Translations under genes and position numbers: made by a program
In this document: positions 9,798-39,320 of the stretch, piece after piece
Layout of the letters: every line of letters starts with the position of its first letter
Numbering within the stretch: the first letter of the stretch is position 1
The notes under the pieces: model-generated
What the model was told of the DNA's origin: nothing
The model's database searches: none
The model's input: only the letters and a program-made list of their open reading frames with translations
From: a plasmid
Strand: one strand, 5' to 3'
Length of the DNA stretch: 64,000 bases
Sequence record: NZ_CP043850.1

Positions 9798-10600
9798 CCA
9801 CTCAGAGCCCCGCCCCCCAGGAGCCTGCTGGCCATGGCCGCGTGTGGCCCTACCTCGCCGGTGCCGCCGCCGCGGCAGCCCTCGGGGTCAGCCTGTTCGC
9901 CATGGGATCAGACCCGGAGCCCTCACCGACCCCAGCGGCCTCCGCGGGGTCAGCGCAGGCGCGCGTCAGCGAGGCGCCCACGGCGCCGGTCACCTCCCCG
10001 GCGACCTCGGCTGCCCCGTCCAGTTCCCCCTCCCCGGCCTCGAGCAGTCGGGACACGGGTCGGGAAAAAAGCTCGCAGACCCCGATCGACCTGTCTGGAA
10101 AAGGCCAGGTCAGCGAGGAATCGGTCAGTCCTGAGCGGGAGGCGCAGATGCAGGTGGAACAGCAGGCTCAGGCCCGGGCCGTAGCGGGCGCAGACGCCTC
10201 GAGCCGGCAGCGGGCGGAGCAGGTGGCCGAGGCCTTCGTGCTCGCCTCGAATGAGCGCACCTGGCAGACCGGGCGGCAGCAGTGGGTGCAGCGACTGCAG
10301 CAGCTGGCGACCCCTGGGGTGGTGGAGAGCGTGAACGTGGACCAGGACTGGGAGTCGGACAGCCAGCGCCGCTACGTCGAAGCCAAGGCCGAGACCACCA
10401 CGCAGATCCAGCAAGTCCAGGCGCAGACGCTCACCAACGATGGGCAGATCGAGGTGGAGGTCGAGTTCGTCACCGAGACCGACAGCGAGGACCCCTGGGT
10501 GAGCAACCCTCCGGTGCGCAAGTCCTTGGTTCTGGTGGTCGATCCAGCCCAGGGCATGGTCGTCGACCAGCTGGACATGACCCCCAGAGGCGGTTTGTGA
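9794..10600 (+). CDS. secreted/anchored Ala-Ser-Pro-rich protein of the transfer operon (hypothetical)
   Basis: 268 aa; N-terminal hydrophobic segment; ATGA-type overlap with the hydrolase gene. Confidence 0.55.
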   Translation: MTTQSPAPQEPAGHGRVWPYLAGAAAAAALGVSLFAMGSDPEPSPTPAASAGSAQARVSEAPTAPVTSPATSAAPSSSPSPASSSRDTGREKSSQTPIDLSGKGQVSEESVSPEREAQMQVEQQAQARAVAGADASSRQRAEQVAEAFVLASNERTWQTGRQQWVQRLQQLATPGVVESVNVDQDWESDSQRRYVEAKAETTTQIQQVQAQTLTNDGQIEVEVEFVTETDSEDPWVSNPPVRKSLVLVVDPAQGMVVDQLDMTPRGGL

Positions 10601-10690
10601 GCGCCGACTGAGGCCCCTCGTCTAGGGCGTCCACTCGCACAGGGTGGGCGCCCTTGATGCTGTCCGGGCTGTGGCGATGGGGGACGGCGT

Positions 10691-10719
10691 GGTCAAGCCC
10701 CTCGTGATGGCGTAGACGG
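10691..10719. repeat. solo IS256-family-like terminal inverted repeat, GGTCAAGCCCCTCGTGATGGCGTAGACGG
   Basis: about 25 of 29 bp match the reverse complement of the right end (21388..21417) of the IS256-family element downstream. Confidence 0.6.
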
Positions 10720-10756
10720 CCAGGAGCGCCAGGGGTCCTGGGGCCGGGCGAAGCGG

Positions 10757-10847
10757 GGCACGGGGGAAGGCGCGCCGGTTGTCGAGATGCAGCGAAGAGT
10801 TCACACGACGCGCGGTGAACTCTTCGCATATCAGGCGGGATCCGGTC
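10757..10847 (+). repeat. cassette-boundary repeat, A form, copy 1 (core GTTGTCGAGATGCAGCGAAGAGTTCACACGACGCGCGGTGAACTCTTCG, then GGCGGGATCCGGT); holds a perfect 12-bp stem / 10-nt loop hairpin at 10793..10826
   Basis: shared with loci at 30527, 33038, 49788 and, inverted, at 32879 and 51134. Confidence 0.8.
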
Positions 10848-11067
10848 GGCGTGAAATCTGGGTGTCCCGGTGGGCGCTCCCGCGCGCCCCAGGGCCCGCC
10901 AGAAACGTACGGGCGGCTGCCGCTCTGGCGGGTCGGTTGTGGCGAGTCATGTGGCGGGCGGACAGGGTCGGATGTGGCGCGCACGGCGCATGGCGGGGTT
11001 GTCAACGTCGGCCGAATATTGACCCCTTATCGTCGTTGAATTTTGACCCCCTCGAATTGATGTGTTG

Positions 11068-11846
11068 TTACTTGCCCGCGGGTTGTGCGGGGGTCTTGAG
11101 GAGCTCGCGGCGTGCCCTGGTGCGGTAGGAGTCCCCGCCGAGGGTGAGGACTTCCGCGTGGTGAACGAGTCGGTCGATCATCGCGGCCGCGACGATGTCG
11201 TCGGAGAAGATCTCACCCCATCTGCCGAAGGGCATGTTGCTGGTGAGCACGATCGAGCCTTGCTCGTAGCGGGACGCGATGAGTTGGAAGAACAGGTTCG
11301 CGGCGTCCGCGTCGAATGGCAGGTAGCCGACCTCGTCGATGATCAGCATCCGGTAGCGGCGGAGTCGTTTCAGCTCATGCTCGAGCCGGCCGGCTGCGTG
11401 CGCGGCCTGGAGTCGGCCAGCCCAGCCGGTCGCGGTATCGAACAACACCGGGTATCCAGCGTGCGCGGCTTTGATGCCGAGGCCGATCGCGAGGTGTGTT
11501 TTGCCGACACCGGGTGGGCCGAGCAGGATCACGTTCTCCGCTTTCGGGATGAACGTTGTCGTCGCGAGGTGAGCGAGGACATCGCGACGCAGCGAGGGCT
11601 GATGGTCGGCGTTGAAGTCGTCCAGGGTCTTCACCGCGGGGAAGTGAGCGCCCGCGATTCGCAGTGTCGTTCCGTTCGCTTCCCGGTCCGCGACCTGGCG
11701 TTACAGGACCGCGGTGAGGTATTCCTCGTGGGACCAGCCCTCGGTGCGGGCTTGATCGCCGAGGGTCTCCCAGACCCGGCCGATCGTGGGGGTCTTCAAC
11801 GCCCGGGTCAGGTATCCCATCGTCGCCGCGATCTCCGTTTCGGGCA
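11068..11846 (-). pseudogene. istB: istB (IS21 helper ATPase) inactivated by a nonsense mutation (TTACAG here versus TTGCAG in copy 2, near 11702), leaving a 188-aa ORF
   Basis: copy 2 encodes the intact 259-aa IstB with Walker A GPPGVGKTHLAIGLG; the only difference seen is one base. Confidence 0.8.
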
Positions 11847-13106
11847 TCAGAGGACCTCACCGGTTCGAGGATCGACAGGGAAATCGACGCCGAACAACTC
11901 GTCGTAGTCGGGCAGTTCCCGAAACACCACGCTGGCCGCTGGCTGCCCGCGATGGTGCAGTCGTTCTCGGTCGCGTTTCGCGGCGCTGAACGTGGAGCGC
12001 AGCCCCCTCGCGATCTCGACGTGGACAGGGTCGATGACGGTCGCGTGTTTCGCCCAACAGCGTTCGTGGTCAGCGACGGTGCGGCCATCGCAGATCACGA
12101 TCACTCGTGTCAGCGTGGCCGTCACATCCACCAGCCGCCCAATCACGCGAGGGTCAACGGAGTAGTCGTTGGCATCGATGCGGACGTAGTAGTCCCGCGC
12201 CAATCGGACCCGGTTTCGCAGCCCCGTCACCGGCGGCAGCGGCGGCAACACGGTCATCGCCTGCAGATCCCGCTCCACCACGTCGATAGGTCGCCCGCCC
12301 AGCGAGCGGATCGTGCGGGAGTTCGCCCGCGGGAGCCACTCCGCGAGTTGGCTGTTGAAACTGTCCGGTGACGCGAACGACCGCCCGGGCAGGAACGATG
12401 TCTCCATGTACTGGTTGTTGCGTTCGGTCATGCCCTTGAACTCCGGATCCCGCGGAGGGGCGAGCACGATCCTCGTCGCCAACGTTCCCGCGAACGCGGC
12501 CGCGGCCTGCGTGACAGTCCCCTTCCCCCCGATCGCGGCCTCACGATCCCAGACGAGCGTCTTCGAGACCCGCCCGACACGAGAGATCAGCTGCCACATC
12601 CCCGCGACCAGATCGCCCGCCTGCCGGGACGGGAGCATCACCGCGGACAGGAACCGGGAGAACGTCAACGTCATCACGAGCACCGGCAGCATCAACGCTT
12701 GCCCATGCCCGACAGGGATCCGCGGCTCCGGGAACCACAGATCCATCTGCGCGCTCTCGCCAGGAAGATGAATCAGACGATCCGCGGGATCGACCCCGGC
12801 ATACTCCGGACGAATCGTCCGGATCCGATCCTTCAGAATCGTGATCGAGTGTTCCCACCCGATCCGCTCCGCGATCACCGTCGCCGGCATCCTCGCATCC
12901 ACCACCAAGAGCTTGCGGATCTCGGGCTCCGCAGCGTCAACGAGTGACCCTTTCCCTGCCCGCTGATACGACGGCGGCGTCTCTGACGCCAACGCCGACC
13001 GCACCGTATTTCGCGCCACACCGAGCCGACGCACGATCTCCTTGATCGACACGCCCTCCGCCCGATGCAACCGCCTGATCTCTGCCCACTGTTCCAAATT
13101 GATCAC
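11847..13106 (-). CDS. istA: IS21-family transposase IstA
   Basis: 419 aa; N-terminal HTH; identical to copy 2. Confidence 0.9.
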   Translation of the reverse strand: MINLEQWAEIRRLHRAEGVSIKEIVRRLGVARNTVRSALASETPPSYQRAGKGSLVDAAEPEIRKLLVVDARMPATVIAERIGWEHSITILKDRIRTIRPEYAGVDPADRLIHLPGESAQMDLWFPEPRIPVGHGQALMLPVLVMTLTFSRFLSAVMLPSRQAGDLVAGMWQLISRVGRVSKTLVWDREAAIGGKGTVTQAAAAFAGTLATRIVLAPPRDPEFKGMTERNNQYMETSFLPGRSFASPDSFNSQLAEWLPRANSRTIRSLGGRPIDVVERDLQAMTVLPPLPPVTGLRNRVRLARDYYVRIDANDYSVDPRVIGRLVDVTATLTRVIVICDGRTVADHERCWAKHATVIDPVHVEIARGLRSTFSAAKRDRERLHHRGQPAASVVFRELPDYDELFGVDFPVDPRTGEVL

Positions 13107-13949
13107 CCTCCAAAGGATGCCCGGAAGGGGTCAAAATTCCCCGACGCTCAGGGGTCAGTATTCACGCGTCGTCGACAGCACCCGCTCGGAAAGCCACCCG
13201 TCGCTCCGCTTCTGTCGGCCGTCGCCGCGGAGGCTGCGGGCACGTTCGTCCTCGTGTTCGGAGTCATCGGAGCGGCGACCTTCTCCGCATCCTTTTCGAA
13301 GTCGGATGTCGCGGTGAACATCGGATTCCTCGGCGTCGCCTTCGCGCTCGGGCTCAGCGTGCTCGTCGGCGCCATCGCCTGGGGCCCCGTGTCGGGCGGC
13401 CACTTCAACCCTGCCGTCACGCTCGGATTGGCGACCGCCGGATTCTTCTCGTGGCGCCGCGTCCCGGCCTACATCGCGTCGCAGTTCGTGGGTGGGCTAC
13501 TCGCGTCCACCGCACTTGTTCTCGTTGCGGCGGGCACCAGCACGGAATTCCTGTCAGACGCTCGAAAGAGCGGATTCGCGTCCACCGGCTGGGGACCGCT
13601 CTCACCAAGCGGGGCCTCCTGGGAGGCGGCGTTCCTCATCGAGGCGGTCACCACGGCCGTGCTCATGGCGGTCGTCCTCGCCGTCTCCACTCGTCGCACG
13701 GACGCGACGCTCGCGCCGCTGGCCATCGGGTTCACGCTGACGGTGGCGGCGCTCGTCGCGATCCCGATCTCGAACGGCTCTTTCAACCCGGCCCGCTCGA
13801 TAGCGACCGCCGTCTACGGGGGCCCTGTCGCGCTCGAGCAGTTGTGGCTCTCGCTCGTCGCGCCAACCCTCGGCGCGGCGCTGGTCGGCCTCGTCGTGAC
13901 AGCGGTCCGCCACCTCGCGCCGCGAGCGAGGAGAAGCTCCTACATCTGA
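13065..13949 (+). CDS. MIP-family channel (aquaporin / glycerol facilitator); the first 38 codons lie inside the IS21 end and the native start appears lost
   Basis: two NPA boxes (HFNPAVT, SFNPARS); six TM helices; no ATG/GTG/TTG between the IS end (13178) and the conserved AAEAAGTF N-terminal motif. Confidence 0.7.
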   Translation: MQPPDLCPLFQIDHPPKDARKGSKFPDAQGSVFTRRRQHPLGKPPVAPLLSAVAAEAAGTFVLVFGVIGAATFSASFSKSDVAVNIGFLGVAFALGLSVLVGAIAWGPVSGGHFNPAVTLGLATAGFFSWRRVPAYIASQFVGGLLASTALVLVAAGTSTEFLSDARKSGFASTGWGPLSPSGASWEAAFLIEAVTTAVLMAVVLAVSTRRTDATLAPLAIGFTLTVAALVAIPISNGSFNPARSIATAVYGGPVALEQLWLSLVAPTLGAALVGLVVTAVRHLAPRARRSSYI

Positions 13950-13993
13950 GTGCGGTGCGTGTTCCATCCCGGAGATCCGGGACGGCGTGACGC

Positions 13994-14209
13994 TTATGCG
14001 GCCGCGTCGACGACCTTCGTCGCGCGGTATGTACTCACGGCGCGGAGGACGGCAGGTGTTGCATGCTGGACGACCCTCAAAGCGCCGGTCGCGATCTGGA
14101 GCCGGCGCTGCACGGCCGCGTCGGCAGCCATCTTCAGGCCGATCTCTATGCCACGTTCGATCCCAACGGCAACGCCGCGGTTGAAGCCGAGACCGTAAAC
14201 AGGACTTCC
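13994..14209 (-). CDS. small hypothetical protein (MGSPVYGLGFNRGVAVGIERGIEIGLKMAADAAV...)
   Basis: only the C-terminal 72 codons of ORF 13994..14539 look protein-like. Confidence 0.25.
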   Translation of the reverse strand, partial: GSPVYGLGFNRGVAVGIERGIEIGLKMAADAAVQRRLQIATGALRVVQHATPAVLRAVSTYRATKVVDAAA

Positions 14210-14301
14210 CATGAGTGCTCCCCAGATTGAGTGGTGCTGTCGAGCGTAGTGAGATCCGGGAGCGCCAGACCGTGAGGTGGCTGGGACTTCAGGCGGAATC
14301 G

Positions 14302-14709
14302 TCAGGCTGTCGGCGCATCCTCGTTCACCGACGGAGGCACCGGCCCACGAGCGGCACGTACGCCAGCCCTGTACGCGCGCATCTCCCGTCGCGCGAATCG
14401 CTGATGGACGAACCATTCCCGAATGGTTCGTCCCAGACGGCGGCGGCGGACGTCGTCGACAAACATCAGCCATCCCACCCGAACCGACCGTGCCCGCTGC
14501 GTGACCTTGTTGTCGGACGGGTCCGAGACGAGCAACCATCGTTGCACCTGCACGTCCGGGCTGGAGCGCGGCTCCGCGAGCTCGTCAACATGGTCTTCCA
14601 AAACCCCGACGATGACGTTGCGGCGTTGCTCCGGGTATGCCCATTCCCTCGTGACGCGTTGCGCGCGAGCGAGGGTGAATTCGTACTCCGTGCGCGCAAT
14701 CGGTTCCAT
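14302..14709 (-). CDS. hypothetical protein
   Basis: 135-aa ORF with protein-like composition; overlaps the 3' end of ORF 14585..15070. Confidence 0.35.
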   Translation of the reverse strand: MEPIARTEYEFTLARAQRVTREWAYPEQRRNVIVGVLEDHVDELAEPRSSPDVQVQRWLLVSDPSDNKVTQRARSVRVGWLMFVDDVRRRRLGRTIREWFVHQRFARREMRAYRAGVRAARGPVPPSVNEDAPTA

Positions 14710-15070
14710 GCCCGGTCGGCAGTGCGGGTAGCAACTGCTCCGCGGTGTGACCCAGCTTCCGGAGGAACGCCTCGACCTCGCCCCGCTGACGTTGCGCGCG
14801 AGGAGACGTCACGCGGTCACTCCACAATCGCACCGCGTCACCGTACTGACGGGCGAAGTCCGACCGCGCCAGCCCGTCTTCGCGGCCGGCGAGCGACAAC
14901 GCCGACACGGCGATGGCGAACTCGTCTCCGACAGACCGGTCGAGCTGGAAGTCACGATTGGAGCGAGCCTCGCGGCTGGCGTCGCGTGCGATGACCAATC
15001 CGACCAGAGCAAGGATCACCGACAGCAGAGACGCGATGACCTGGATCCAGGTCGCGAAGGCGTTGTCCAC
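14585..15070 (-). CDS. hypothetical membrane-anchored protein (N-terminal TM IQVIASLLSVILALVGLVIA); may be one frameshifted gene with 14302..14709
   Basis: 161-aa ORF; the C-terminal 40 aa look like out-of-frame junk. Confidence 0.3.
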   Translation of the reverse strand: MDNAFATWIQVIASLLSVILALVGLVIARDASREARSNRDFQLDRSVGDEFAIAVSALSLAGREDGLARSDFARQYGDAVRLWSDRVTSPRAQRQRGEVEAFLRKLGHTAEQLLPALPTGHGTDCAHGVRIHPRSRATRHEGMGIPGATPQRHRRGFGRPC

Positions 15071-15167
15071 AGACGAACAGTATCGTCAGGACGCCGCATT
15101 CTTCCTTCCAAGAATGCAGAAGAGGTGCACCCGGATCCCGGGTGCACCTCTTCTACTGCGCCGCTTC

Positions 15168-16004
15168 TTACTTCTGGATGAAGGCGAGGAGGTCAGGGTT
15201 GATGACCTCGGCGTGCGTGGTCAGCATGCCGTGCGGGTAGCCGGCGTACAGCTTCAGCTCAGAGTTCTGGAGGAGCTCGTGCTGCAGGAGCGCGGCGGCC
15301 TTGTAGGGAACGACCTGGTCGTCGTCGCCCTGCATGACGAGAACGGGGACCGTGATGGCCTTGAGGTCTTCGGTCTGGTCGGTCTCGGAGAAGGCCTTGA
15401 TGCCCTCGTAGTGAGCGAGCGCGCTGCCCGTCATGCCCTGACGCCACCAGTTCGCGACGACCGGCTCGGACACCTCGACACCGTCGCGGTTGAAGCCGTA
15501 GAACGGACCCGACGCCACGGCCTGGAAGAACTCGGCACGGTTGGCGGCGAGAGCGGAACGGAAACCGTCGAGGACCTCGATGGGCGTGCCCTCGGGGTTG
15601 CTGTCGGACTTCAGCATGATGGGAGGAACCGAGGAGACGAGCACGGCCTTGGCGACACGACCCTGGGGCTGACCGTACTTGGCGACGTAGCGAGCGACCT
15701 GGCCGCCGCCGGTGGAGTGGCCGATGTGGATGGCGTTCTGCAGGTCGAGGTGCTCGACGACGGCGTTCACGTCGCTGGCGTAGTGGTCCATGTCGTGGCC
15801 GGTGCTGATCTGCGACGAACGTCCGTGGCCGCGGCGGTCGCTGGCGACGACGCGGTAGCCCTTCGAGAGGAAGTAGAGCATCTGTGCGTCCCAGTCGTCG
15901 GACGACAGCGGCCAGCCGTGGTGGAACACGATGGGCTGGGCGTTCTTGTCGCCCCAGTCCTTGAAGTAGATCTCTGCGCCGTCTTCGGTGGTGATGTATC
16001 CCAT
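15168..16004 (-). CDS. alpha/beta-hydrolase of the non-haem chloroperoxidase / bromoperoxidase type
   Basis: start MGYITTEDGAEIYFKDWG..PIVFHHGWPLSSDDWD; nucleophile elbow GHSTGGG; SD-like AAGGA upstream; the ORF's upstream 29 codons judged not translated. Confidence 0.8.
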   Translation of the reverse strand: MGYITTEDGAEIYFKDWGDKNAQPIVFHHGWPLSSDDWDAQMLYFLSKGYRVVASDRRGHGRSSQISTGHDMDHYASDVNAVVEHLDLQNAIHIGHSTGGGQVARYVAKYGQPQGRVAKAVLVSSVPPIMLKSDSNPEGTPIEVLDGFRSALAANRAEFFQAVASGPFYGFNRDGVEVSEPVVANWWRQGMTGSALAHYEGIKAFSETDQTEDLKAITVPVLVMQGDDDQVVPYKAAALLQHELLQNSELKLYAGYPHGMLTTHAEVINPDLLAFIQK

Positions 16005-16181
16005 GATGAGTCCTTTGTCATGTCGTCGAACGAGCAAGCCCGCGCGACTGGTGGGTAGTTTGCGCCTCGACGATGTGGCGACTGCATTCACGGTAACTTT
16101 CGGGCGCCCGCGATGTCAACGTCGGCCGAATATTGACCCCTTATCGTCGTTGAATTTTGACCCCCTCGAATTGATGTGTTG

Positions 16182-16961
16182 TTACTTGCCCGCGGGTTGT
16201 GCGGGGGTCTTGAGGAGCTCGCGGCGTGCCCTGGTGCGGTAGGAGTCCCCGCCGAGGGTGAGGACTTCCGCGTGGTGAACGAGTCGGTCGATCATCGCGG
16301 CCGCGACGATGTCGTCGGAGAAGATCTCACCCCATCTGCCGAAGGGCATGTTGCTGGTGAGCACGATCGAGCCTTGCTCGTAGCGGGACGCGATGAGTTG
16401 GAAGAACAGGTTCGCGGCGTCCGCGTCGAATGGCAGGTAGCCGACCTCGTCGATGATCAGCATCCGGTAGCGGCGGAGTCGTTTCAGCTCATGCTCGAGC
16501 CGGCCGGCTGCGTGCGCGGCCTGGAGTCGGCCAGCCCAGCCGGTCGCGGTATCGAACAACACCGGGTATCCAGCGTGCGCGGCTTTGATGCCGAGGCCGA
16601 TCGCGAGGTGTGTTTTGCCGACACCGGGTGGGCCGAGCAGGATCACGTTCTCCGCTTTCGGGATGAACGTTGTCGTCGCGAGGTGAGCGAGGACATCGCG
16701 ACGCAGCGAGGGCTGATGGTCGGCGTTGAAGTCGTCCAGGGTCTTCACCGCGGGGAAGTGAGCGCCCGCGATTCGCAGTGTCGTTCCGTTCGCTTCCCGG
16801 TCCGCGACCTGGCGTTGCAGGACCGCGGTGAGGTATTCCTCGTGGGACCAGCCCTCGGTGCGGGCTTGATCGCCGAGGGTCTCCCAGACCCGGCCGATCG
16901 TGGGGGTCTTCAACGCCCGGGTCAGGTATCCCATCGTCGCCGCGATCTCCGTTTCGGGCAT
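16182..16961 (-). CDS. istB: IS21 helper ATPase IstB (intact)
   Basis: 259 aa; Walker A GPPGVGKTHLAIGLG. Confidence 0.9.
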   Translation of the reverse strand: MPETEIAATMGYLTRALKTPTIGRVWETLGDQARTEGWSHEEYLTAVLQRQVADREANGTTLRIAGAHFPAVKTLDDFNADHQPSLRRDVLAHLATTTFIPKAENVILLGPPGVGKTHLAIGLGIKAAHAGYPVLFDTATGWAGRLQAAHAAGRLEHELKRLRRYRMLIIDEVGYLPFDADAANLFFQLIASRYEQGSIVLTSNMPFGRWGEIFSDDIVAAAMIDRLVHHAEVLTLGGDSYRTRARRELLKTPAQPAGK

Positions 16962-18220
16962 CAGAGGACCTCACCGGTTCGAGGATCGACAGGGAAATCG
17001 ACGCCGAACAACTCGTCGTAGTCGGGCAGTTCCCGAAACACCACGCTGGCCGCTGGCTGCCCGCGATGGTGCAGTCGTTCTCGGTCGCGTTTCGCGGCGC
17101 TGAACGTGGAGCGCAGCCCCCTCGCGATCTCGACGTGGACAGGGTCGATGACGGTCGCGTGTTTCGCCCAACAGCGTTCGTGGTCAGCGACGGTGCGGCC
17201 ATCGCAGATCACGATCACTCGTGTCAGCGTGGCCGTCACATCCACCAGCCGCCCAATCACGCGAGGGTCAACGGAGTAGTCGTTGGCATCGATGCGGACG
17301 TAGTAGTCCCGCGCCAATCGGACCCGGTTTCGCAGCCCCGTCACCGGCGGCAGCGGCGGCAACACGGTCATCGCCTGCAGATCCCGCTCCACCACGTCGA
17401 TAGGTCGCCCGCCCAGCGAGCGGATCGTGCGGGAGTTCGCCCGCGGGAGCCACTCCGCGAGTTGGCTGTTGAAACTGTCCGGTGACGCGAACGACCGCCC
17501 GGGCAGGAACGATGTCTCCATGTACTGGTTGTTGCGTTCGGTCATGCCCTTGAACTCCGGATCCCGCGGAGGGGCGAGCACGATCCTCGTCGCCAACGTT
17601 CCCGCGAACGCGGCCGCGGCCTGCGTGACAGTCCCCTTCCCCCCGATCGCGGCCTCACGATCCCAGACGAGCGTCTTCGAGACCCGCCCGACACGAGAGA
17701 TCAGCTGCCACATCCCCGCGACCAGATCGCCCGCCTGCCGGGACGGGAGCATCACCGCGGACAGGAACCGGGAGAACGTCAACGTCATCACGAGCACCGG
17801 CAGCATCAACGCTTGCCCATGCCCGACAGGGATCCGCGGCTCCGGGAACCACAGATCCATCTGCGCGCTCTCGCCAGGAAGATGAATCAGACGATCCGCG
17901 GGATCGACCCCGGCATACTCCGGACGAATCGTCCGGATCCGATCCTTCAGAATCGTGATCGAGTGTTCCCACCCGATCCGCTCCGCGATCACCGTCGCCG
18001 GCATCCTCGCATCCACCACCAAGAGCTTGCGGATCTCGGGCTCCGCAGCGTCAACGAGTGACCCTTTCCCTGCCCGCTGATACGACGGCGGCGTCTCTGA
18101 CGCCAACGCCGACCGCACCGTATTTCGCGCCACACCGAGCCGACGCACGATCTCCTTGATCGACACGCCCTCCGCCCGATGCAACCGCCTGATCTCTGCC
18201 CACTGTTCCAAATTGATCAC
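16961..18220 (-). CDS. istA: IS21-family transposase IstA
   Basis: 419 aa; identical to copy 1. Confidence 0.9.
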   Translation of the reverse strand: MINLEQWAEIRRLHRAEGVSIKEIVRRLGVARNTVRSALASETPPSYQRAGKGSLVDAAEPEIRKLLVVDARMPATVIAERIGWEHSITILKDRIRTIRPEYAGVDPADRLIHLPGESAQMDLWFPEPRIPVGHGQALMLPVLVMTLTFSRFLSAVMLPSRQAGDLVAGMWQLISRVGRVSKTLVWDREAAIGGKGTVTQAAAAFAGTLATRIVLAPPRDPEFKGMTERNNQYMETSFLPGRSFASPDSFNSQLAEWLPRANSRTIRSLGGRPIDVVERDLQAMTVLPPLPPVTGLRNRVRLARDYYVRIDANDYSVDPRVIGRLVDVTATLTRVIVICDGRTVADHERCWAKHATVIDPVHVEIARGLRSTFSAAKRDRERLHHRGQPAASVVFRELPDYDELFGVDFPVDPRTGEVL

Positions 18221-18365
18221 CCTCCAAAGGATGCCCGGAAGGGGTCAAAATTCCCCGACGCTCAGGGGTCAGTATTCACGCGTCGTCGACAGGGGTCCCT
18301 CGCCACAAACGACCGAATCTGTCGAGTCAGTTGCAGAGCGCCGGGGTCAAGGGAACGACTCCGCC

Positions 18366-18932
18366 TTAGCGGGGATGGCGGAGGCCGCGTGACCGTGCGA
18401 TGAGGCAGACCAGCAGCCCGAGGGCTGCTGCCGTACTGGCAAGGTGGATCGGCCACGCCCACGGGCTGTGGTCGCCCCCGGAGATCATGTAGGTGTCGGC
18501 CAGGCCCAATCCCATACCGAAGGAGGCCACCCAGTAGGCAGGGGCCGCGGCGGTAAGCAATCCCAGGCCCATGGTCAGGAGCATCAGAGGGTCGATCCGT
18601 GGCCGGCGCCGGGCCAGGCGACCCAGCACGAGGGCGCCGCCGATTCCTGCGAAGAAAGCGAGCGCGGGGAAGGCCGCCAGCTCGAACACGCTGACCTGCG
18701 GGGCCAAGTCAGCATAGATCTGGGTGAGGCTACGGTCTGCGGGTGCTGCGGCCAGCGGGTTGAGGACGAGGGTCTGCAATGCCCCGAGGAGGGCCAACAT
18801 CGCCAGGAGGGAGGGGATCGCAGTGCGTGTCGCCGGACCCATCCACGCAGGCCTAGCGGAGGCGGGTGAGCCGCCAGCGGTGCGGGGCTCGACCGGGCCC
18901 GGGCGGGCAGAAGGCGGGAAAGGGCGCGACAT
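18366..18932 (-). CDS. hypothetical integral membrane protein
   Basis: 188 aa with several hydrophobic helices. Confidence 0.5.
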   Translation of the reverse strand: MSRPFPPSARPGPVEPRTAGGSPASARPAWMGPATRTAIPSLLAMLALLGALQTLVLNPLAAAPADRSLTQIYADLAPQVSVFELAAFPALAFFAGIGGALVLGRLARRRPRIDPLMLLTMGLGLLTAAAPAYWVASFGMGLGLADTYMISGGDHSPWAWPIHLASTAAALGLLVCLIARSRGLRHPR

Positions 18933-19084
18933 GGGCTCACTCTAGGGCCATCCCCGCGCCTGGCCCTCGGTGACCAAGCAGGGTGCAGGCGCATTGGCTG
19001 GGCATCTGGCTGAGTTGCAGCGGATGGCCCAACTGGCTTCGCCCACTGGCGCGTCTTCGGGACGACGCAAACGACCGAATCTGC

Positions 19085-19582
19085 CTAATCGACGGGCTGG
19101 AATCCAAGTTTCTGGTAGATCCCCATGGCCGCCTCGGAGGTGCCCTCGCCGAAGCGCAGACTCAGGGCGGGGTCGCCGGCGGCGGAGCAGACGTCGACGG
19201 CGTGCTGCACCAGGGCGCGCCCGACCCCCTTCCCGCGCGCGGCGGGATCGGTGAAGAGGTCAATGATGAACGGCCCCGCGAGGTCCGCGTCCCAGATCGA
19301 GTGGGTGACCACCATGATCGCCCCGGCCAGGCGGCCGTCCACCCACGCCGAGGCGCTCGCGTCGGCGCGCAGCTCCCCGTAGTCGCCGCGGAAGGTCGCC
19401 TCCATCTCCTCCCGCGCTTCGGCCAGGTCGGAGGCGGCGACGCCCGGTGGGTAGGCGGCGAGGTAGCACCGGGCCAGGTCATCGGCCGTCCCCGCGTCCA
19501 GTCCTCGGAGCTCGAGGCTTCCAGGGGCGTGGTCAGCGGAGTGGGTCGGCGGCAGGTGAAGGGTCAGCAGGTCAGTAGACAC
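19085..19582 (-). CDS. GNAT-family N-acetyltransferase
   Basis: acetyl-CoA-binding motif RGKGVGRALVQHAV; C-terminal YQKLGF. Confidence 0.75.
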   Translation of the reverse strand: MSTDLLTLHLPPTHSADHAPGSLELRGLDAGTADDLARCYLAAYPPGVAASDLAEAREEMEATFRGDYGELRADASASAWVDGRLAGAIMVVTHSIWDADLAGPFIIDLFTDPAARGKGVGRALVQHAVDVCSAAGDPALSLRFGEGTSEAAMGIYQKLGFQPVD

Positions 19583-19994
19583 AGGGGTTCCTCTCGTGAT
19601 GGTTGGCTACTCACAGTGATGCCGTCACAGAGTGAACATGGTCAGAACGATAACAGCGCACACCTGCTCTCGGAATGAGTCGAGTCGGTCGGAACATGAG
19701 TGACCTATGCATGTCCAAGCAATGCACGCGCTGGCAGTTCGTTTCGGTGGCGGGGATTGGGCCAGCCACAAACAACCGATATGGGCGTTCAGCGAGGGGG
19801 TGAGTCGGTCTCTGCGGATCGGGGGGTCACCGCGGGGAGGTCACAGGGGAGCTTCACGACTGTCCGACTCGCGGCGACGCTTGGTGATCGCAGTCCGAAA
19901 GATGAGCGGCACGATCCCGAGGACGAAAAGACCCCAGCCCACCAGGGCGCGCCATTCCATCTGCGAGTTGGAGAGAACAAGGCTCCCGGCGAGA

Positions 19995-21417
19995 GTTGAG
20001 TCCCGCATAGTGGTGTAGCGCCCGGTGGTCGGGCGTGTCGTCTCAGACGTGGACGCGGCCACCGTGTGATCCGTCGAGTCAACCTTCCACAGAATCCTCG
20101 AATGGAGTCATCACGATGACCGCTCCTCATATTCTCGACCCTGCCGGCCTGCTCGGAGAAGCCCTGTCTGAAGCGTCCCCGGACATGATGCGCCATCTGC
20201 TGCAGACCATGATCAACACCTTGCTGTCCGCGGATGCCGACGCGGTGGTCGGTGCCGAATGGGGCAAGCCCAGCTCCTCGCGCACTGCTCAGCGGAACGG
20301 GTACCGCCACCGGGACCTGGACACCCGGGTCGGCACCCTGGACGTGGCCATCCCCAAGCTCAGATCGGGCACGTACTTCCCGGACTGGCTACTTGAACGC
20401 AGGAAGAGAGCGGAGTCGGCGCTGATCACCGTGGTCGCTGACTGCTACCTCGCCGGGGTCTCGACCCGACGGATGGACAAGCTGGTCAAGACTCTGGGCG
20501 TCAACGCCCTGTCCAAGTCCCAAGTCTCCCGGATGGCCACCGAGCTCGACGAGCAGGTGGAGGCCTTCCGCCACCGGCCGCTCGGGGAGGCGGGACCGTT
20601 CACGTTCGTTGCCGCGGACGCGTTGACGATGAAGGTGCGTGAGGGCGGGCGTGTGGTCAACGCGGTGGTGCTCATCGCCACCGGGGTCAACGGCGACGGC
20701 CACCGCGAAGTGTTGGGCCTGCGGGTGGCCACCAGCGAGACCGGGGCGGCGTGGAACGAGTTCTTCGCCGACCTGGTCGCCCGGGGCCTGGCCGGGGTCC
20801 GGCTGGTCACCTCTGATGCCCACCCCGGGCTCAAGGACGCCATCGCCGCGAACCTGCCCGGTGCGGTGTGGCAACGCTGCCGCACCCACTACGCGGCGAA
20901 CCTGATGGGCATCACCCCGAAGAGCATGTGGCCGGCGGTGAAGGCCATGCTCCACTCGGTCTACGACCAGCCCGATGCCGCCAGCGTCAACGCCCAGTTC
21001 GACCGGCTGCTGGACTACGTGAGCGAGAAACTGCCGGTGGTGGCCGAGCACCTCGATGCTGCCCGGGCCGACATCCTGGCGTTCACCACATTCCCCAAGG
21101 ACGTCTGGACCCAGATCTGGTCGAACAACCCGGCCGAGCGGCTCAACCGCGAGATCCGCCGCCGCACCGACGCGGTGGGCATCTTCCCCAACCGGGCGGC
21201 CATCGTCAGGCTAGTGGGTGCGGTGCTGGCCGAGCAGACCGATGAATGGGCCGAGGGTCGACGCTACCTCGGTCTCGAAGTCCTGGCCCGCTGCCGACTC
21301 ACCACCGTGACCAACACCGGAGACGAGGTGGACCCCGACACCGAACTCAACCTCGGCCTCAGCGCCTGACCCCCATGAAGGATCAGACCGCTACACCATC
21401 ACGAGGGGCTTGACCCC
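19995..21417 (+). mobile_element. IS256-family insertion sequence (right IR 21388..21417; left IR degenerate, only the inner core TGGTGTAGCG recognisable at 20011..20020)
   Basis: transposase gene plus a terminal repeat on the right; left boundary approximate. Confidence 0.65.
20116..21369 (+). CDS. IS256-family (mutator-type) transposase
   Basis: start MTAPHILDPAGLLGE; typical IS256 transposase sequence throughout (..AIPKLRSGTYFPDWLLERRKR.., DDE region). Confidence 0.9.
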   Translation: MTAPHILDPAGLLGEALSEASPDMMRHLLQTMINTLLSADADAVVGAEWGKPSSSRTAQRNGYRHRDLDTRVGTLDVAIPKLRSGTYFPDWLLERRKRAESALITVVADCYLAGVSTRRMDKLVKTLGVNALSKSQVSRMATELDEQVEAFRHRPLGEAGPFTFVAADALTMKVREGGRVVNAVVLIATGVNGDGHREVLGLRVATSETGAAWNEFFADLVARGLAGVRLVTSDAHPGLKDAIAANLPGAVWQRCRTHYAANLMGITPKSMWPAVKAMLHSVYDQPDAASVNAQFDRLLDYVSEKLPVVAEHLDAARADILAFTTFPKDVWTQIWSNNPAERLNREIRRRTDAVGIFPNRAAIVRLVGAVLAEQTDEWAEGRRYLGLEVLARCRLTTVTNTGDEVDPDTELNLGLSA

Positions 21418-21467
21418 GGCGAGCCATAGCGCCATGGTCAGCAAGGTGAGGCCCCAGTAGGTTCGCT

Positions 21468-23884: not shown

Positions 23885-26080
23885 TGCCCCAAGGGGAGAG
23901 TCAGACCCCTGCTAGTAAGCTTCACGGGTAGGGGTAATGGTGAACCACCAACGGCTCGACTGTAGGGCATTTTTGTGCAGTCCGTGCATTTACCAAATTG
24001 GTTTAGAAAATCCTACGGACCCGCCCGACGCAGATATCTTTATATCGGTCCTCTCCTCCTTTAATCTCCATGCCCCTTGGGTCACGGCAGTCGGCGTGGC
24101 GGCTATGAAATACCCCAGCGCTTTAGCGACACGCTGACGAACATCGAAAGATCAATCAGTCGCCATCTCATTGAGCTTCTGCAGCCAACTCTTCACGTCC
24201 CCCGCAGGGTCTGCTTCTTTTAATCTATCCAATGTCATTTTTTCAAATGCTTCGTCCGCGAGGCGCCTCTTTACGATTTCCTCCTTTATGGGTCTGTGAT
24301 CAGGCGCGTTTTTGGTAGCGTCGCTTACGAGCTTAGGGACGTTGCAGTCGTCTGTAACTTCAACCCGCACCCCCAGCGCTTCGAAAATGGCCTCCGGGTG
24401 TAGATAGTTCTCCATCATCTTCTTTGAAGTGAGTGTTGCAAACGATCCGTCACCGCGATTGTTTACCGCGTCGACGGATTGTTGGTATTTACTAACGTCA
24501 TTGTCATAAAGATGAAACTCGCGGCGTCGTAAATCTTTTAGGTACCGCTTGCTTACCCACTGGCCCAGAGTGCCCCCTCCCTGGGGAACAAATGCAAAAC
24601 GATGGTCTGCCATGAGATCTGGGTACGCTCCGGGATCTTCCTCATGCAACTTTCTAGAGATCTTCTGGAGCGACGTAACGTCATGTGGGCCCTCAACGCA
24701 TATGAGAACTTTAACTCGATTGTCCGGCTGCACACCGAGTTCATCAGCGAGCTCTGCCCACATATCGTCATTTCCTTGTAAGATTGAGGGCTCTTCTGAG
24801 TAAATGTCCTTACGTATATACCGAATACTCTTTGCTGGCAAATGGGAAACGAATCCGGGACTATGGGAAGTGAGGATGACCTGAGTTCCGGGAACTTCGG
24901 CCATGAGCTGGAATGAGTCGAGCAGGATTTTCTGATTACGGGGGTGCTGTGATGTCTCTGGCTCTTCGAGTGCGTAGATTACAGATGATTTATCACTGGA
25001 CTCAAGCATGCGCTGGGCCTCAGCTTTGAAGAAGCTCACCAGGATTAGCCGACGAACTCCAGAGCCACGCTTGTTTATGGCCACCCCATTGGAGCCATGC
25101 AATGCGACAGAGAAGAGACTATGCCAGCGAGGGTCACTCTTAAACTCGGGGACTAACCCTTCGGCGATAGCGGGGTCGATCTCTGAGAGGGCCTCGTGAG
25201 TTCGAGACGCCAAATCCGTCGCCTTGCCTCGAACTGCTTCTACGACCTCCTCCAGGAGCTTCTGGACAGAGTCTTCAGCTAGCGCGGCTGTGATCGCCAT
25301 TTTCATGGGTTCCTGGACTTCGTCATCTGCATCAGTACTTTTGCGATCTGACTGGAACAGGGCAAAGTAAGGCAGATAACCGGTCAATTTGGTGAATATT
25401 TTACCGCCATCTTCTTTACCTAGAGAGATTTCGGATTCTGACAAATTTAGATCTTCGCATCCCCATAGGGCGGCTCTTAGGTCAGGGTTAGAAGCCTTGT
25501 TGACATGGTTGTATTCTGACGGGTCAAGACGAGTTCTGGCCAGTGACTTAAGTGCCGTATTTGTTAGAGAGAGTAGGTTATCTAGCTCCTTATTTATAGG
25601 ATGTTGGCATACTACATACGTCTCTTCTTTCGGCTTGGAGCTGGTGCATACCCACCGCTTTCTGAGCTGAAGGCATCCGTCCTTGTCCAACAGGTGTTCC
25701 TGGGCGAGGCTCGTTTCTGCCTGCGCATCGAGGACTAGGGAAGGGGGAAGCTCGGAAAACTTACATGTAATTTGGAAAAAATTTTCCGATGTGGAGACAT
25801 TTTTATCGGTGATATCCGGTTTTACGACATTTCCTCCAAAGAATATATCTAGAGCCTCTAGTATCGTTGACTTGCCAACGTCGTTACGGCCAACGATTGT
25901 GGTCAGGTCTTCGAAGCTAACCCATTTCTCTTCTCGGTAGCCACGGAAATTTTTTAATGAGACGGCAATGAGCTTCATCGAGGGCCTGAATTCTTTGAAG
26001 GTGGCGGTACTTTGCGTGGGTTGTGTGAGTATAAAAGAACGATGACGGAAGGCCTGTTGAAAAATCACGACACTACATGC
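23885..26080. other. low-GC (~40-45%) island in a ~70% GC background, carrying a single gene
   Basis: base composition read directly, e.g. 24/60 GC at 25381..25440. Confidence 0.8.
24152..25978 (-). CDS. OLD-family / GajA-like ATP-dependent nuclease (N-terminal ABC-type ATPase plus C-terminal Toprim)
   Basis: start MKLIAVSLKNFRGY; Walker A GRNDVGKSTILEAL; D-loop ALEEPETSQHP; H-loop ILTSHSP; Toprim VLICVEGPHD. Confidence 0.7.
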   Translation of the reverse strand: MKLIAVSLKNFRGYREEKWVSFEDLTTIVGRNDVGKSTILEALDIFFGGNVVKPDITDKNVSTSENFFQITCKFSELPPSLVLDAQAETSLAQEHLLDKDGCLQLRKRWVCTSSKPKEETYVVCQHPINKELDNLLSLTNTALKSLARTRLDPSEYNHVNKASNPDLRAALWGCEDLNLSESEISLGKEDGGKIFTKLTGYLPYFALFQSDRKSTDADDEVQEPMKMAITAALAEDSVQKLLEEVVEAVRGKATDLASRTHEALSEIDPAIAEGLVPEFKSDPRWHSLFSVALHGSNGVAINKRGSGVRRLILVSFFKAEAQRMLESSDKSSVIYALEEPETSQHPRNQKILLDSFQLMAEVPGTQVILTSHSPGFVSHLPAKSIRYIRKDIYSEEPSILQGNDDMWAELADELGVQPDNRVKVLICVEGPHDVTSLQKISRKLHEEDPGAYPDLMADHRFAFVPQGGGTLGQWVSKRYLKDLRRREFHLYDNDVSKYQQSVDAVNNRGDGSFATLTSKKMMENYLHPEAIFEALGVRVEVTDDCNVPKLVSDATKNAPDHRPIKEEIVKRRLADEAFEKMTLDRLKEADPAGDVKSWLQKLNEMATD

Positions 26081-26420
26081 GCGACGATCAAGACCATCTG
26101 GTATGGGCCATCGTGCCAGGCGCCCTGAGTAGAGGCAAGACTTTGGTGAGGGGAGTTCTGAGAGCGGGTGCTGTTCCTTCAGATCGAGTGGCGACAGCGG
26201 CGACGCTCGTGTAGGTCGAGGCCCACCTGAAGGGCCTGCATAACTGGCCGGGGCGAGTATCTGAGGATGCCGTCGCCTGCTTGCCCCGGGTAAGAGCGTC
26301 AGAGGGCAGCGGCAACTCGAAGAGGGGACGCTGTAAAAAAATGCACTTCAGAAGAGGAGCGCATTTGACCCGTGCGGGCACAACTCGAGCACCAACCTGC
26401 TCCTGCTACTCCCATGGGTG

Positions 26421-29261
26421 TCAGGCCGTTAACTCGGCGTAGCGGGTGAAGAGCAGTTCCTGACGCTCCAGCTCGGTGCGGCAACGCCGTGCGGCGCCGA
26501 AGGCCTTGTCCACCTCCGTGTCCAGCGCGTCGTGGGCCTTCACCAAAGCCGGGTCCATGCCTAGTGCCGTGTAGTGCTGAGCTAGGGAGCGTCCGGGGTG
26601 CAGAGCGCGTGCGGCCAGCACCTTCTGGCCGGCGGCAATGATCTTCTCCCGTTGTCCCTCGGCCAGAGGCGGTAGGGGCAGGGTGGTCCACGTCAACGTG
26701 GAACCGAACCGCAAGTCCGACTTGAGGCGGCCGCCGACGGTCTTCTGCCAGGTCAGGAACATGCTCGAGGAGAGCATGGCGAACTGGAACCCGTCTGGGT
26801 CCGGGCACTGGAAGGTCGCATCGCTGGCGATCACCGTCTGCGGCAGTAACTGAACGGGGAAGTAGGGACGTTCCTCGGAGACATGGCGTGGGATGCACAC
26901 GTAATCCGTGGCCAACGCCTGCACCTGACGGAACAGGTGGTGATGACGGTAATCGCGGGTAGACGCTGCGGCAGAGCGGCCCCGGAACTGTCGGACCGCC
27001 TCCACGCGCTCGTGCAACACCGGGGAGGCGTGGATCTCCGCCCCGGTCGCCTGGACCAGCCACAGGCACCATCGCTCTTCAGAATGCAACAGCTCACGGG
27101 CACCGACGTAGGGCCGCAGGTACTTCGCGGCGATCGGATCTGCTCGTACCTGCTCCACCTCCGTAGCACCGACCAGCAGATGCCCATCGTCCGTGGGCTT
27201 GGATCCGTACATCGGCATGTTTAGCTCCGCCGAGATCGGCCGGCTGCGCTTGGTCACCAACACGTTGGGCCCGTCCACCAGGTAGGCGTTGATCGTCTTC
27301 ACCCCGGGCACTTCGCGGGCCTCACTGCGCGCGTGCTCGTATTTGAACAGGCGCGCCTTGGCATCGGGGTCGCGGGTGAAGCCGATGATCACGCAGTGCA
27401 CCGCGGCCTTGCCGGGGGCCTGGGAGTCCCACGCGAAAGTGCGGTGGGCGAACTTGATCCGCCAGCCGGCGGCGAAGATCGGGGCGAACAATCGAGCCGG
27501 CTGGTCCCCCTGCACGATCGAGTTCGTGGTCACGAACGCCCACTCCCCATCCCGATCGGTGAACAAGCGCAAGGTGAGCGCGTGCCAGGCGGTGACGTAG
27601 TCCAGGCGAGAGAGATCCTTGTTGCCACCCCAGGCGGCGTGCATCAAGGCGAGCTGCGCCCTGGTTCGGGTGGTGTCACCCAGGAACGGGGGGTTGCCGA
27701 ACACGAACGTGCGCCCGGCCGGGGCGGGGAGGGCCTGAGACCAGTCGAGGGTGAGCGCGTCGTGCTGGTAGATCGTGGCGGTGATCTTGATCGGCAGACG
27801 CACCGGGGCCTGGCCGAGCGCGGCGGCCAGCTGCCGATTGGCCTGATGGTCCACGAGGAACATGGCGGTCTCGGCGATCTTGGCCGGCCACCAGTTGATC
27901 TCGACCCCGTAGAACCGGTCGATGTGGATCCGCTGGTCCAAGCTCACGTCCAGGGACAGGTCCAGGGACCCGGTGCGGCGGCGCTGGTCGGCCAGCAGGT
28001 CCGTCTCGATCTCGCGCAGCTTGGCGTAGGCCAGGTTCAAGAAGTTGCCGGCCCCGCAGGCCGGGTCGACGTAGATGTTGGCGGCCATCTCCTCGATCAG
28101 CCCGATCACCTCACGCCGGGTGGTGGTCTTGTTCTGGATGAGCCGGTCCGCGCGGGCGCGGTACTCGTCCAGGAAGAGCGGGCCGATGGTCTTGAGGATG
28201 TTCTCCTCGGAGGTGTAGTGCTCCCCGTCCCCGCGGCGGGCCTGCTTGGACTTGACCAGTTGGAACATGGAGCCGAATACGGCCGGGGAGATCTGGGTCC
28301 ACCGGAACCGGCAGGCTGCCACGAGCGCGTCCCGGAAGTCGTTGGTGAGGAAGCCGGCCGTGGAGGTGCCGTCGAAGATGCCGCCGTTGACGTAGGGGAA
28401 GCGGGCCAGAGAGTCCGGCACACCGCGGCGCCGGTTCTCGGGGGTGTTGAGCACGCGGAAGAGCGCGTCGAGCTGGGGGCCGAGGTTGTCGGCGGTGGTG
28501 TCCCACTCCACCCAACGCTGGAACAGGTCGGCCTCCCACAGGCCGGCGTCGTCTCCGTAGAGCAGGAACAGCAGCCGGGTGAGCAGGATCGAGGCCTGCT
28601 GGGTGGCGAACTCCTCCTCTTCGGCGTCCTCGGGGGCCTCCTCGCCCACGGGTACGTCCACCTCGTCCCCGACGAGGGCGGTGAACATGGAGGCCATCAG
28701 CTGCGCGGCCGCGATGGAGGCCTCTTGTTCCTCGGTCTTGGTCACGGTGTCCCGGCCGGCCAGGAACATCAGCTGGTCCACGTGATCGGTGGCCTCTTGC
28801 ACGGTGAACTCGGACACCCAGCCGGCCTCGCCCAGACGTTCGACGCGGATGCGGGCGAAGTCTGTGACGAGCACGTACTTGGGCCACTCGTGCTGACCGA
28901 TGGATCCGCCGGCCAGGTAGTCCAGGGCCTGGGCGTGGGCGACGTCGAGGTCGGCACCCAGGGACTTGGCCTCGCCCAGGGCGACGCCGGACCAGAAGAA
29001 GTCGATGTAGCCGGCCCCGCCGGTGGAGGCGCGCGCGGCCCCGCGCTCGAACAGGTCGATGCGCTCGGGGATCACCCCGAAGGTTCGCAGCAGGTCGGAC
29101 CAGAACTGCTGGGCGAAGGACTTCTCCGTGTGGGTCTGTCCATCGGCGCGCCAGCGGTCGATGCGCTGACCCCAGGCATGTCCGAAGTCGTCCAGGGCTG
29201 TGCGGATGACGCCGCGATCTGCAAGTTGCTCCACAGGCACAACGTACAGCGACCTGAGCAA
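26421..29261 (-). CDS. MmeI-family type IIL (IIG) restriction-modification enzyme (fused PD-ExK nuclease, gamma-class N6-adenine methyltransferase and specificity region)
   Basis: 946 aa; N-terminal D..EAK motif (YIDFFWSGVALGEAKS); SAM motif VDPACGAGNFL; catalytic motif FGNPPF. Confidence 0.7.
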   Translation of the reverse strand: MLRSLYVVPVEQLADRGVIRTALDDFGHAWGQRIDRWRADGQTHTEKSFAQQFWSDLLRTFGVIPERIDLFERGAARASTGGAGYIDFFWSGVALGEAKSLGADLDVAHAQALDYLAGGSIGQHEWPKYVLVTDFARIRVERLGEAGWVSEFTVQEATDHVDQLMFLAGRDTVTKTEEQEASIAAAQLMASMFTALVGDEVDVPVGEEAPEDAEEEEFATQQASILLTRLLFLLYGDDAGLWEADLFQRWVEWDTTADNLGPQLDALFRVLNTPENRRRGVPDSLARFPYVNGGIFDGTSTAGFLTNDFRDALVAACRFRWTQISPAVFGSMFQLVKSKQARRGDGEHYTSEENILKTIGPLFLDEYRARADRLIQNKTTTRREVIGLIEEMAANIYVDPACGAGNFLNLAYAKLREIETDLLADQRRRTGSLDLSLDVSLDQRIHIDRFYGVEINWWPAKIAETAMFLVDHQANRQLAAALGQAPVRLPIKITATIYQHDALTLDWSQALPAPAGRTFVFGNPPFLGDTTRTRAQLALMHAAWGGNKDLSRLDYVTAWHALTLRLFTDRDGEWAFVTTNSIVQGDQPARLFAPIFAAGWRIKFAHRTFAWDSQAPGKAAVHCVIIGFTRDPDAKARLFKYEHARSEAREVPGVKTINAYLVDGPNVLVTKRSRPISAELNMPMYGSKPTDDGHLLVGATEVEQVRADPIAAKYLRPYVGARELLHSEERWCLWLVQATGAEIHASPVLHERVEAVRQFRGRSAAASTRDYRHHHLFRQVQALATDYVCIPRHVSEERPYFPVQLLPQTVIASDATFQCPDPDGFQFAMLSSSMFLTWQKTVGGRLKSDLRFGSTLTWTTLPLPPLAEGQREKIIAAGQKVLAARALHPGRSLAQHYTALGMDPALVKAHDALDTEVDKAFGAARRCRTELERQELLFTRYAELTA

Positions 29262-29397
29262 GCCCCCTCATCTGAGATAACCGGTTCGGGAGCCACGCCG
29301 CCGGCGTAGAGGGGGCAGGGGGGTGGTGTAGCTCTGCCTAGGATCGGTGGCGATGCACCCTCGCATCGCGTCATCTGCTCGAGCAAGGAACTCGCCC

Positions 29398-30063: not shown

Positions 30064-30526
30064 GGCTGCACGGCCGCAATGGTGCCCATTCCCTAGACGT
30101 TGACGGCTGCGCGTGTGGGCATTGGTCTGTACGGGGGCTGGCTCGAGGACTTGTGTTCGTACGCATGTCTGTCAGCGCCGCCCCTCTCCTGGAGCTTGCC
30201 GAGAGTCGAGGCGTCTGCTTCCTGCTGCGAGCCCGTCGGCTACCCCCGCCACCCTGTCCAGAGGTCTCGAGGCACCCGCCGTATGGGGCTTCTGCCGTCT
30301 TGAGCAGGCGTGGTCCTGGAGCTCCGGTCGTCCGGAGAGCGCGAACCTGCTACGGGGGTCTTACCTCGCGGCAGGGGACCGCTTCACCGTGCGGGTCGGG
30401 GTGTCGTTGTCGGCATTGGGAAGGTGGCGGTGCAGGACGCGTGGAGTCGGGGCGGCCCGCGGCAGGAGGCCCGGAACGCCGGCCACAAACGACCGTTTGC
30501 GGCGCTCGAGGGGGAGTGGTGGCTGA

Positions 30527-38251: not shown

Positions 38252-38257
38252 TAATAC

Positions 38258-39316: not shown

Positions 39317-39320
39317 GTCC

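Follow-up and report, generated by a model that had tools for sequence, protein, structure and literature searches.

A probable IS21-family composite transposon carrying a Microbacterium chromosomal segment on a Micrococcus plasmid

The stretch of DNA analysed here (hereafter the window) comprises 64,000 nucleotides of the plasmid sequence NZ_CP043850.1, and its segment 11000-18291 (7292 bp) is, with a probability of about 0.88 as judged from the sequence, a composite (compound) transposon made of two directly oriented copies of an IS21-family insertion sequence (IS) and the cargo between them. An earlier, sequence-only reading of the window had proposed that the whole IS-cargo-IS unit was transposed with a 5-bp target duplication, and this proposal agrees both with an empty target site found in other contigs and with five other sites at which the same unit is inserted. 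The natural record of this element is unusually complete, as it includes the donor segment, the exact empty target and six insertions, all at or near 100% identity, and it documents the birth and spread of a composite transposon. The kind of element is already known, since IS21-family composite transposons have been documented, and no new mechanism is revealed. No literature on this particular transposon or on these assemblies was found.

Structure and ends of the composite unit

The two IS copies are direct repeats offset by 5114 bp, in which positions 11000-13178 and 16114-18292 present a sole mismatch, A at 11703 versus G at 16817. The IS measures 2178 bp because its true ends are TGTC...GACA and solo copies found elsewhere stop at the same bases; the extra G shared by both repeats is due to chance. 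Copy 1, on the aquaporin side of the cargo (IS-B), occupies 11000-13177 and copy 2, on the hydrolase side (IS-A), occupies 16114-18291, both on the minus strand and with TG...CA ends, and they agree at 2177 of 2178 bp. The two direct copies differing by one base had already been noticed in the sequence-only reading, although the size of 2180 bp given there has to be corrected.

The pentamer GGGGT is found immediately outside both outer ends of the unit (10995-10999 and 18292-18296) whereas the inner junctions between IS and cargo (GCACC... and ...CGCGA) share no bases, as had been claimed and as was seen on inspection of the flanks. The duplication therefore flanks the whole unit and not each IS. 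Given the base composition, 5 bp would match by chance with a probability of 0.0017.

Each IS ends in inverted repeats (IRs) of 54 nt, which were delimited by aligning the left (IRL) and right (IRR) repeats and whose arms are approximately 80% complementary. In copy 1 the IRR (11000-11053) is an outer end of the composite and the IRL (13124-13177) an inner end, while in copy 2 the IRR lies at 16114-16167 and the IRL, at 18238-18291, is the other outer end, all on the minus strand. Every IR contains two internal repeats (TTGACCCC/CTGACCCC) with the motif (T/C)TGACCCC.

Both copies carry istA (419 aa) followed by istB (259 aa) on the minus strand, and the stop and start codons overlap by 1 nt in the sequence TGATG. 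In copy 1 istA (11847-13106) is intact and encodes a DDE transposase, and istB (11068-11847) is interrupted by a nonsense codon (Q49*); in copy 2 both istA (16961-18220) and istB (16182-16961) are intact according to their translations and Pfam matches. IstA has the Pfam domains HTH, rve and Mu-transpos_C_2, scores 185 bits against the NCBIfam model NF033546 transpos_IS21 (cutoff 160) and matches the structures of IS5376 IstA (8B4H/8Q4D) at 1e-17. IstB matches Pfam IstB_IS21 (PF01695) at 4.7e-72 and NCBIfam IS21_help_AAA with 280 bits (cutoff 200), and its residues 16-247 align with the IS5376 IstB structures 8Q3W/8Q4D at 2e-56. The gene pair, the size of 2178 bp, the TG/CA ends, the long imperfect IRs and the 5-bp duplication are all those of the IS21 family, whose members measure approximately 2-2.7 kb and in which target duplications of 4-8 bp occur. 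Among the plasmids of PLSDB no near relative of the IS (best approximately 72%) or of the composite was found.

Empty target site and other insertion sites

Contigs with the empty site were retrieved by exact-match look-up of the GNAT protein encoded just to the right of the insertion. In five independent contigs (L101, L107, L102, L106 and L105) the flanks of the window are joined, with 95-100% identity, at a single GGGGT, which is the joint that had been predicted from the sequence alone. Two of them, L101 (81.7 kb) and L107, match the window at 100% from 19993 to 18292 and from 10999 to 1788, these two stretches having exactly 5 bp of the contig in common. The empty site reads ...GCATGGC GGGGT CCCTCGCC... 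and contains the pentamer once, so that GGGGT is not part of a longer resident repeat, an objection that the sequence-only reading had itself raised and that can now be dismissed.

In L101 the insertion point lies between two convergent open reading frames (ORFs) and the insertion is therefore intergenic. Disruption of a target gene was also considered and rejected, as the flanks joined in silico give no convincing ORF across the joint. The right flank reads GGGGTCCCTCGCC..., which brought to mind a Tn3-type inverted repeat with GGGGT at its tip. This candidate was also rejected, as the motif has in the same orientation a single, weaker partner and the empty site is plain unique sequence.

Other sites of the composite were retrieved by exact look-ups of the hydrolase and IstA proteins. 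The 7292-bp unit, at least 99.9% identical, is present at six sites and is bounded by a perfect duplication of 5 bp that differs from site to site. Read in the orientation of each locus, the duplications are ACCCC at the window site, GACAA in L001, GAGGC in L004, L005 and L008, GACCT in L006, TGCTC in L009 and L010, and TTCCG in L097. Solo copies of the IS are also flanked by 5-bp duplications (GCATG in L098 and CGGCA in L099). The presence of duplications of the same length at solo and at composite insertions indicates that this IS makes 5-bp duplications and that the composite behaves as one transposing unit.

One more solo copy, 99.8% identical, was observed at 5930-8107 of L092, a 3.5-Mb contig (GCA_977010785.1). 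Its flanking 5-mers differ (GAACG versus AGCAC) and it adjoins another IS21-family element of a different kind, which suggests that the chromosome once underwent a rearrangement mediated by the IS. The flanks of this copy bear no relation to the donor locus of the cargo.

Origin of the cargo and hosts

The cargo (13178-16113, 2936 bp) is 100% identical to a chromosomal locus of Microbacterium type that is free of the IS. In three IS-free contigs (L002, L003 and L007) the identity is 2936/2936 and ends exactly at both IS junctions, and in L003, where the locus stands in a 384-kb contig, the flanks are syntenic on both sides with Microbacterium sp. ZW T5_45 at 80-86% DNA identity. Micrococcus (luteus, yunnanensis and sp. 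KRD070) is the source name of the records with the exact hydrolase, with the fused aquaporin and with most of the IS proteins, the exact IstA being also filed under Microbacterium profundi, and the relatives at 75-97% belong to Microbacterium, Agromyces and other Microbacteriaceae. When the hydrolase was used as query against the species representatives of GTDB, the best match was 97% (Microbacterium sp. ZW T5_45), and none of the representatives hit had the IS or an aquaporin gene beside the hydrolase gene. In PLSDB only the hydrolase gene was matched, at 73-79%, in Rhizobium and other plasmids.

These data indicate that chromosomal genes passed recently from Microbacterium (Microbacteriaceae) to plasmids of Micrococcus (Micrococcaceae). 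The transposon can also be of use as a marker with which the movement of plasmids among Micrococcus of skin and indoor settings is traced. IstA, IstB, the hydrolase and an aquaporin fragment have also been deposited, as exact copies, under accessions of Shigella flexneri and Salmonella enterica, and these records are most likely explained by contamination of the assemblies with Micrococcus.

The nonsense allele of istB

At codon 49 the istB of copy 2 reads CAA (Gln) whereas that of copy 1 reads TAA, the single-nucleotide polymorphism (SNP) being at the first base of the codon (11703). The single base reported earlier as creating a stop in copy 1 is thus borne out by the translations; it is not, however, a sign of a recent event private to this plasmid, as the same arrangement of one intact and one stopped gene is found at three different sites. 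The TAA allele is present in the aquaporin-side copy of L001, L004, L005, L006, L008, L009 and L097 as well. With the hydrolase-side copy named first, the arrangement is CAA/TAA in the window, L001, L005 and L008 (three different sites), TAA/TAA in L004, L006, L009 and L097, and CAA/CAA in L010, and the arrangement TAA/CAA was never seen at any locus compared. Since the CAA/TAA order is the same at three independent sites, the mutation is older than the insertion in this plasmid and was carried along by the transposon; a constant order is what is expected where the unit is inherited intact. The homogeneous TAA/TAA and CAA/CAA states may be the result of gene conversion.

The Q49* codon precedes the AAA+ core of IstB, as the crystallised core of IS5376 IstB (5BQ5) aligns from residue 69. 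A restart ORF of 188 aa can be read in copy 1 from the GTG at 11634 (residue 72 on), whose product would miss the N-terminal domain and consist in essence of the AAA+ core. From what is known of the family, a single functional istB should be enough for the unit, copy 2 supplying the aquaporin-side copy in trans, and the composite would go on moving with a single intact istB. A selected function of this asymmetry can also be imagined, in which Q49* would disable the movement of copy 1 on its own or the 188-aa product would modulate IstA/IstB, in the manner of the inhibitor protein of Tn5, while the IS termini would serve as portable expression signals (the TTGACA tip for the hydrolase and an ATG leader from the IS for a chimeric aquaporin). 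We consider this idea improbable.

Cargo genes and their expression

The cargo had been described as holding a MIP-channel gene, two or three small ORFs and a hydrolase gene. All of these were found, but the aquaporin gene travels incomplete, its native start having been cut off by the IS. The ORF of this AqpZ-like MIP protein (13065-13949, plus strand, 294 aa) takes its first 38 codons from the IS and keeps both NPA motifs intact; it matches Pfam MIP at 3e-37 and scores 199.8 bits against NCBIfam AqpZ, under the cutoff of 256. The native aquaporin has 270 aa and its ATG is located 41 bp outside the cargo; the promoter and 16 residues at the native N-terminus (approximately 14 codons of sequence, given a GGGTGC repeat at the junction) are therefore missing from the gene. 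The frame now opens at the ATG at 13065 inside copy 1, giving 38 IS-encoded residues. From the junction up to the first transmembrane helix no ATG or GTG start exists, and the protein has for this reason been annotated variously as 231, 245 or 294 aa. The Micrococcus 'aquaporin' records of these three lengths are thus explained as a Microbacterium gene that lacks its native start and is joined to sequence of the IS. Having lost its start and promoter and being fused to an ATG of the IS, the gene is of doubtful expression, and it would be either silent or made as a fusion with an IS-encoded N-terminus.

The second recognizable gene (15168-16004, minus strand) encodes an alpha/beta hydrolase of 278 aa with the nucleophile motif GHSTGG, and is directly downstream of and co-oriented with istB of copy 2. 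Over its residues 2-277 the protein matches chloroperoxidase L (1A88) at 2e-125, and it matches a Pseudomonas esterase (1ZOI) at 4e-125; this full-length similarity, together with the Gly-X-Ser-X-Gly motif, places its predicted product in the family of cofactor-free haloperoxidases, perhydrolases and esterases. This exact protein appears in 208 blocks of the collection. The gene retains 109 bp of its own upstream DNA. A candidate hybrid promoter was read by eye at 16090-16119 (minus strand), in which the -35 hexamer TTGACA would be the last 6 bp of the IS (16119 to 16114) and, after a spacer of 18 nt, the -10 hexamer would be TACCGT in the cargo (16095 to 16090), which fits the actinobacterial TANNNT type. 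The hydrolase is probably expressed, either through read-through from istAB of copy 2 or from this IS-cargo hybrid promoter.

The approximately 1.2 kb between the aquaporin and hydrolase genes are poorly coding. Two overlapping ORFs of 161 and 135 aa in different frames were found there (14302-15070, minus strand), and so the small ORFs described earlier do exist but have a weak coding signal. In the GC frame plot the coding-like signal changes frame near 14700, and the two ORFs may be one frameshifted gene. Neither had a family match in the Pfam and NCBIfam scans. The sequence of this region is identical in the Microbacterium donor locus. A search of 10500-19100 against Rfam returned nothing.

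Proposed history and alternative explanations

The following history is proposed for the element. An IS native to Microbacteriaceae would have come to lie on either side of a 2.9-kb segment of a Microbacterium chromosome, one copy being placed 109 bp upstream of the hydrolase gene and the other inside the first codons of the aquaporin gene. The composite would then have reached a transmissible replicon and would now circulate in Micrococcus, being inserted by the IstA transposase with the help of the AAA+ protein IstB. The block inserted in the window, one unit with a 5-bp duplication, is delimited by the IRL of the hydrolase-side copy and the IRR of the aquaporin-side copy. It occupies an intergenic position in a conjugative plasmid of Micrococcus, the rest of which is 100% identical to plasmids without the unit.

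Several observations weigh against this reading of the element. Two of the six insertion sites are occupied in some strains by a solo IS with identical flanks and not by the composite (L094 for the site of L001 and L096 for that of L005). The birthplace of the composite, which would be a Microbacterium chromosome with the IS on both sides of the segment, was not found, and the two junctions predicted for it, in each of which native Microbacterium flank would adjoin an IS end, gave 0 hits in the JGI metagenome contigs. Moreover, some of the contigs come from short-read or metagenome assemblies, in which an exact 2.2-kb repeat can be collapsed or mis-threaded, and such errors may account for the homogeneous states (TAA/TAA and CAA/CAA) of the metagenome contigs L004, L009 and L010. 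As regards the expression of the cargo, a consensus promoter scan found nothing in it, the hybrid promoter included.

The solo copies at composite sites are likely to be deletions through recombination between the direct repeats, but a different route would leave the same result. A solo IS could first have made the duplication, after which a 5114-bp IS-cargo circle, released by a composite elsewhere in the cell, would have been integrated by homologous recombination, for which direct repeats of 2.2 kb and near identity are good substrates. The solo copies in L094 and L096, which share flanks and duplication with the composites of L001 and L005, are what such a route would leave behind. It demands, however, two rare events per site at six sites, whereas the change from composite to solo IS by deletion is one frequent event, and the window site yielded only empty and full forms. 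In addition, the integration of a TAA circle into a CAA resident, with the SNP at 1475/2178, predicts the CAA/TAA order at approximately 32%, and this order was seen at 3/3 independent sites in isolates and the reverse never. For these reasons the solo-first route is regarded as quite improbable.

Transposition of the composite as one unit has also to be compared with a cointegrate of the IS21 style, in which a small circular donor with abutted IS ends (a tandem or reactive junction) would have fused with the target, without excision of the unit at its two outer ends. The direct copies, the outer duplication and the unrelated inner junctions have the geometry of an IS21 replicon fusion, and the abutted ends could form a junction promoter, with the -35 TTGACA at the tip of the IRR and AATACT approximately 17 nt into the IRL. 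On the other side, no abutted IRR-IRL junction was present in the window or in any fetched locus, where assemblies say little about transient forms, and a donor circle would not be maintainable because the cargo has no replication gene. A cointegrate and ordinary composite transposition give the same end product by sequence, and we hold the former to be unlikely. The least probable explanation, to which hardly any weight can be given, is that two independent IS insertions share 5 bp by coincidence or that the IS was duplicated by an artefact of assembly. A single 5-bp match would be expected with a chance of approximately 0.002, which taken alone is not negligible, but the empty site lacks the cargo and has GGGGT once, the cargo comes from a different genus, and the unit is found with matching duplications at five other sites in independent assemblies. 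Coincidence and misassembly are excluded by the empty site together with these five sites.

Comparison with known systems

Among the IS21-family composites already described are the cfr segment located between two IS21-558 copies in direct orientation (pSCFS6, staphylococci) and those around pesticide-catabolic genes (PMC10044604 citing Kehrenberg et al. 2007, PMC1797725; PMC12927932). They resemble the present element in that two direct copies with istA and istB bracket passenger genes, which they carry between species on plasmids. They differ from it in that here the hosts are Actinomycetota, the IS is unrelated at the DNA level and the cargo is neither for resistance nor catabolic. For the present element there are, in addition, a donor locus and an empty site that both match exactly, and insertions at six sites.

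With IS21 and IS5376 themselves the element has in common the gene pair and its order, the TG/CA ends, the IRs with internal repeats and a short target duplication. It is different from them in being only a distant relative in sequence, in its duplication of 5 bp and in that tandem or junction intermediates were not observed here. The direct copies and the occurrence of solo and IS-cargo-IS forms at one site are also reminiscent of the pseudo-compound transposons and translocatable units of the IS26 type (IS6 family). These have, however, a single IS6-family DDE transposase instead of istA and istB, and a duplication of 8 bp versus 5 bp here. To our knowledge no dedicated conservative IS-targeted reaction has been described for the IS21 family.

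One defective flanking IS is a classic feature of Tn5 (IS50L/IS50R) and of Tn10. In Tn5 a single-base difference puts a nonsense codon in one of the IS copies and the unit moves on the proteins of the other copy. The present element is similar in having a single-base nonsense mutation in a transposition gene of one flanking IS, and Q49* has persisted through at least three insertion events. In Tn5, however, the IS copies are inverted, it is the transposase that is defective and the same base change makes the promoter of the resistance gene, whereas here the copies are direct, the helper ATPase gene istB is the one affected and the SNP, which is 1.5 kb from the cargo in a gene facing away from it, has no apparent promoter role.

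Plasmid surroundings

The backbone of the window encodes a VirB4-like ATPase, an M23/NlpC-P60 hydrolase and an FtsK-like protein, and is 77% identical to plasmids of Micrococcus luteus. To the right of the composite, a 28-nt direct repeat (18301-18328 and 19063-19090, 82% identical, core ACAAACGACCGAATCTG) lies immediately beside the insertion site and brackets a small ORF upstream of the GNAT gene. Further on, an IS256-family element is found at 19994-21414, with a Mutator-type transposase gene (20035-21369) and a 9-bp duplication (CCCGGCGAG) at 19985-19993 and 21415-21423. As this element is absent from L101, which is otherwise 99.8-100% identical, it represents a second recent insertion in the plasmid.

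A motif of 25 nt (TGTCGAGATGCAGCGAAGAkTTCAC) occurs in six copies on both strands (10780, 32914, 32975, 33040, 49790 and 51158), where 0 would be expected, and includes a perfect tandem pair of 61 bp at 32876-32997. In L102, L105 and L106 the GNAT-containing module shared with the window stops exactly at the copy at 10780, and the motif is probably the end or a recombination site of another mobile module.

A defence island was observed at 24000-30100, a stretch of 50% GC in a replicon of 67% GC. It contains, on the minus strand, a gene for a 638-aa ATPase-nuclease similar to AriA/OLD/GajA (24152-26068; PADLOC AriA, 2e-60) and, beside it, genes for an MmeI-type IIG restriction-methylase (26421-29267) and for a protein with a GmrSD_C domain (29332-30063). 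The region 38000-48200 is devoted to metal resistance, with two paralogous modules of heavy-metal P-type ATPases (39321-41573 and 45850-48135) and an MFS transporter; the two modules are DNA repeats of 71-76% located approximately 6.5 kb apart.

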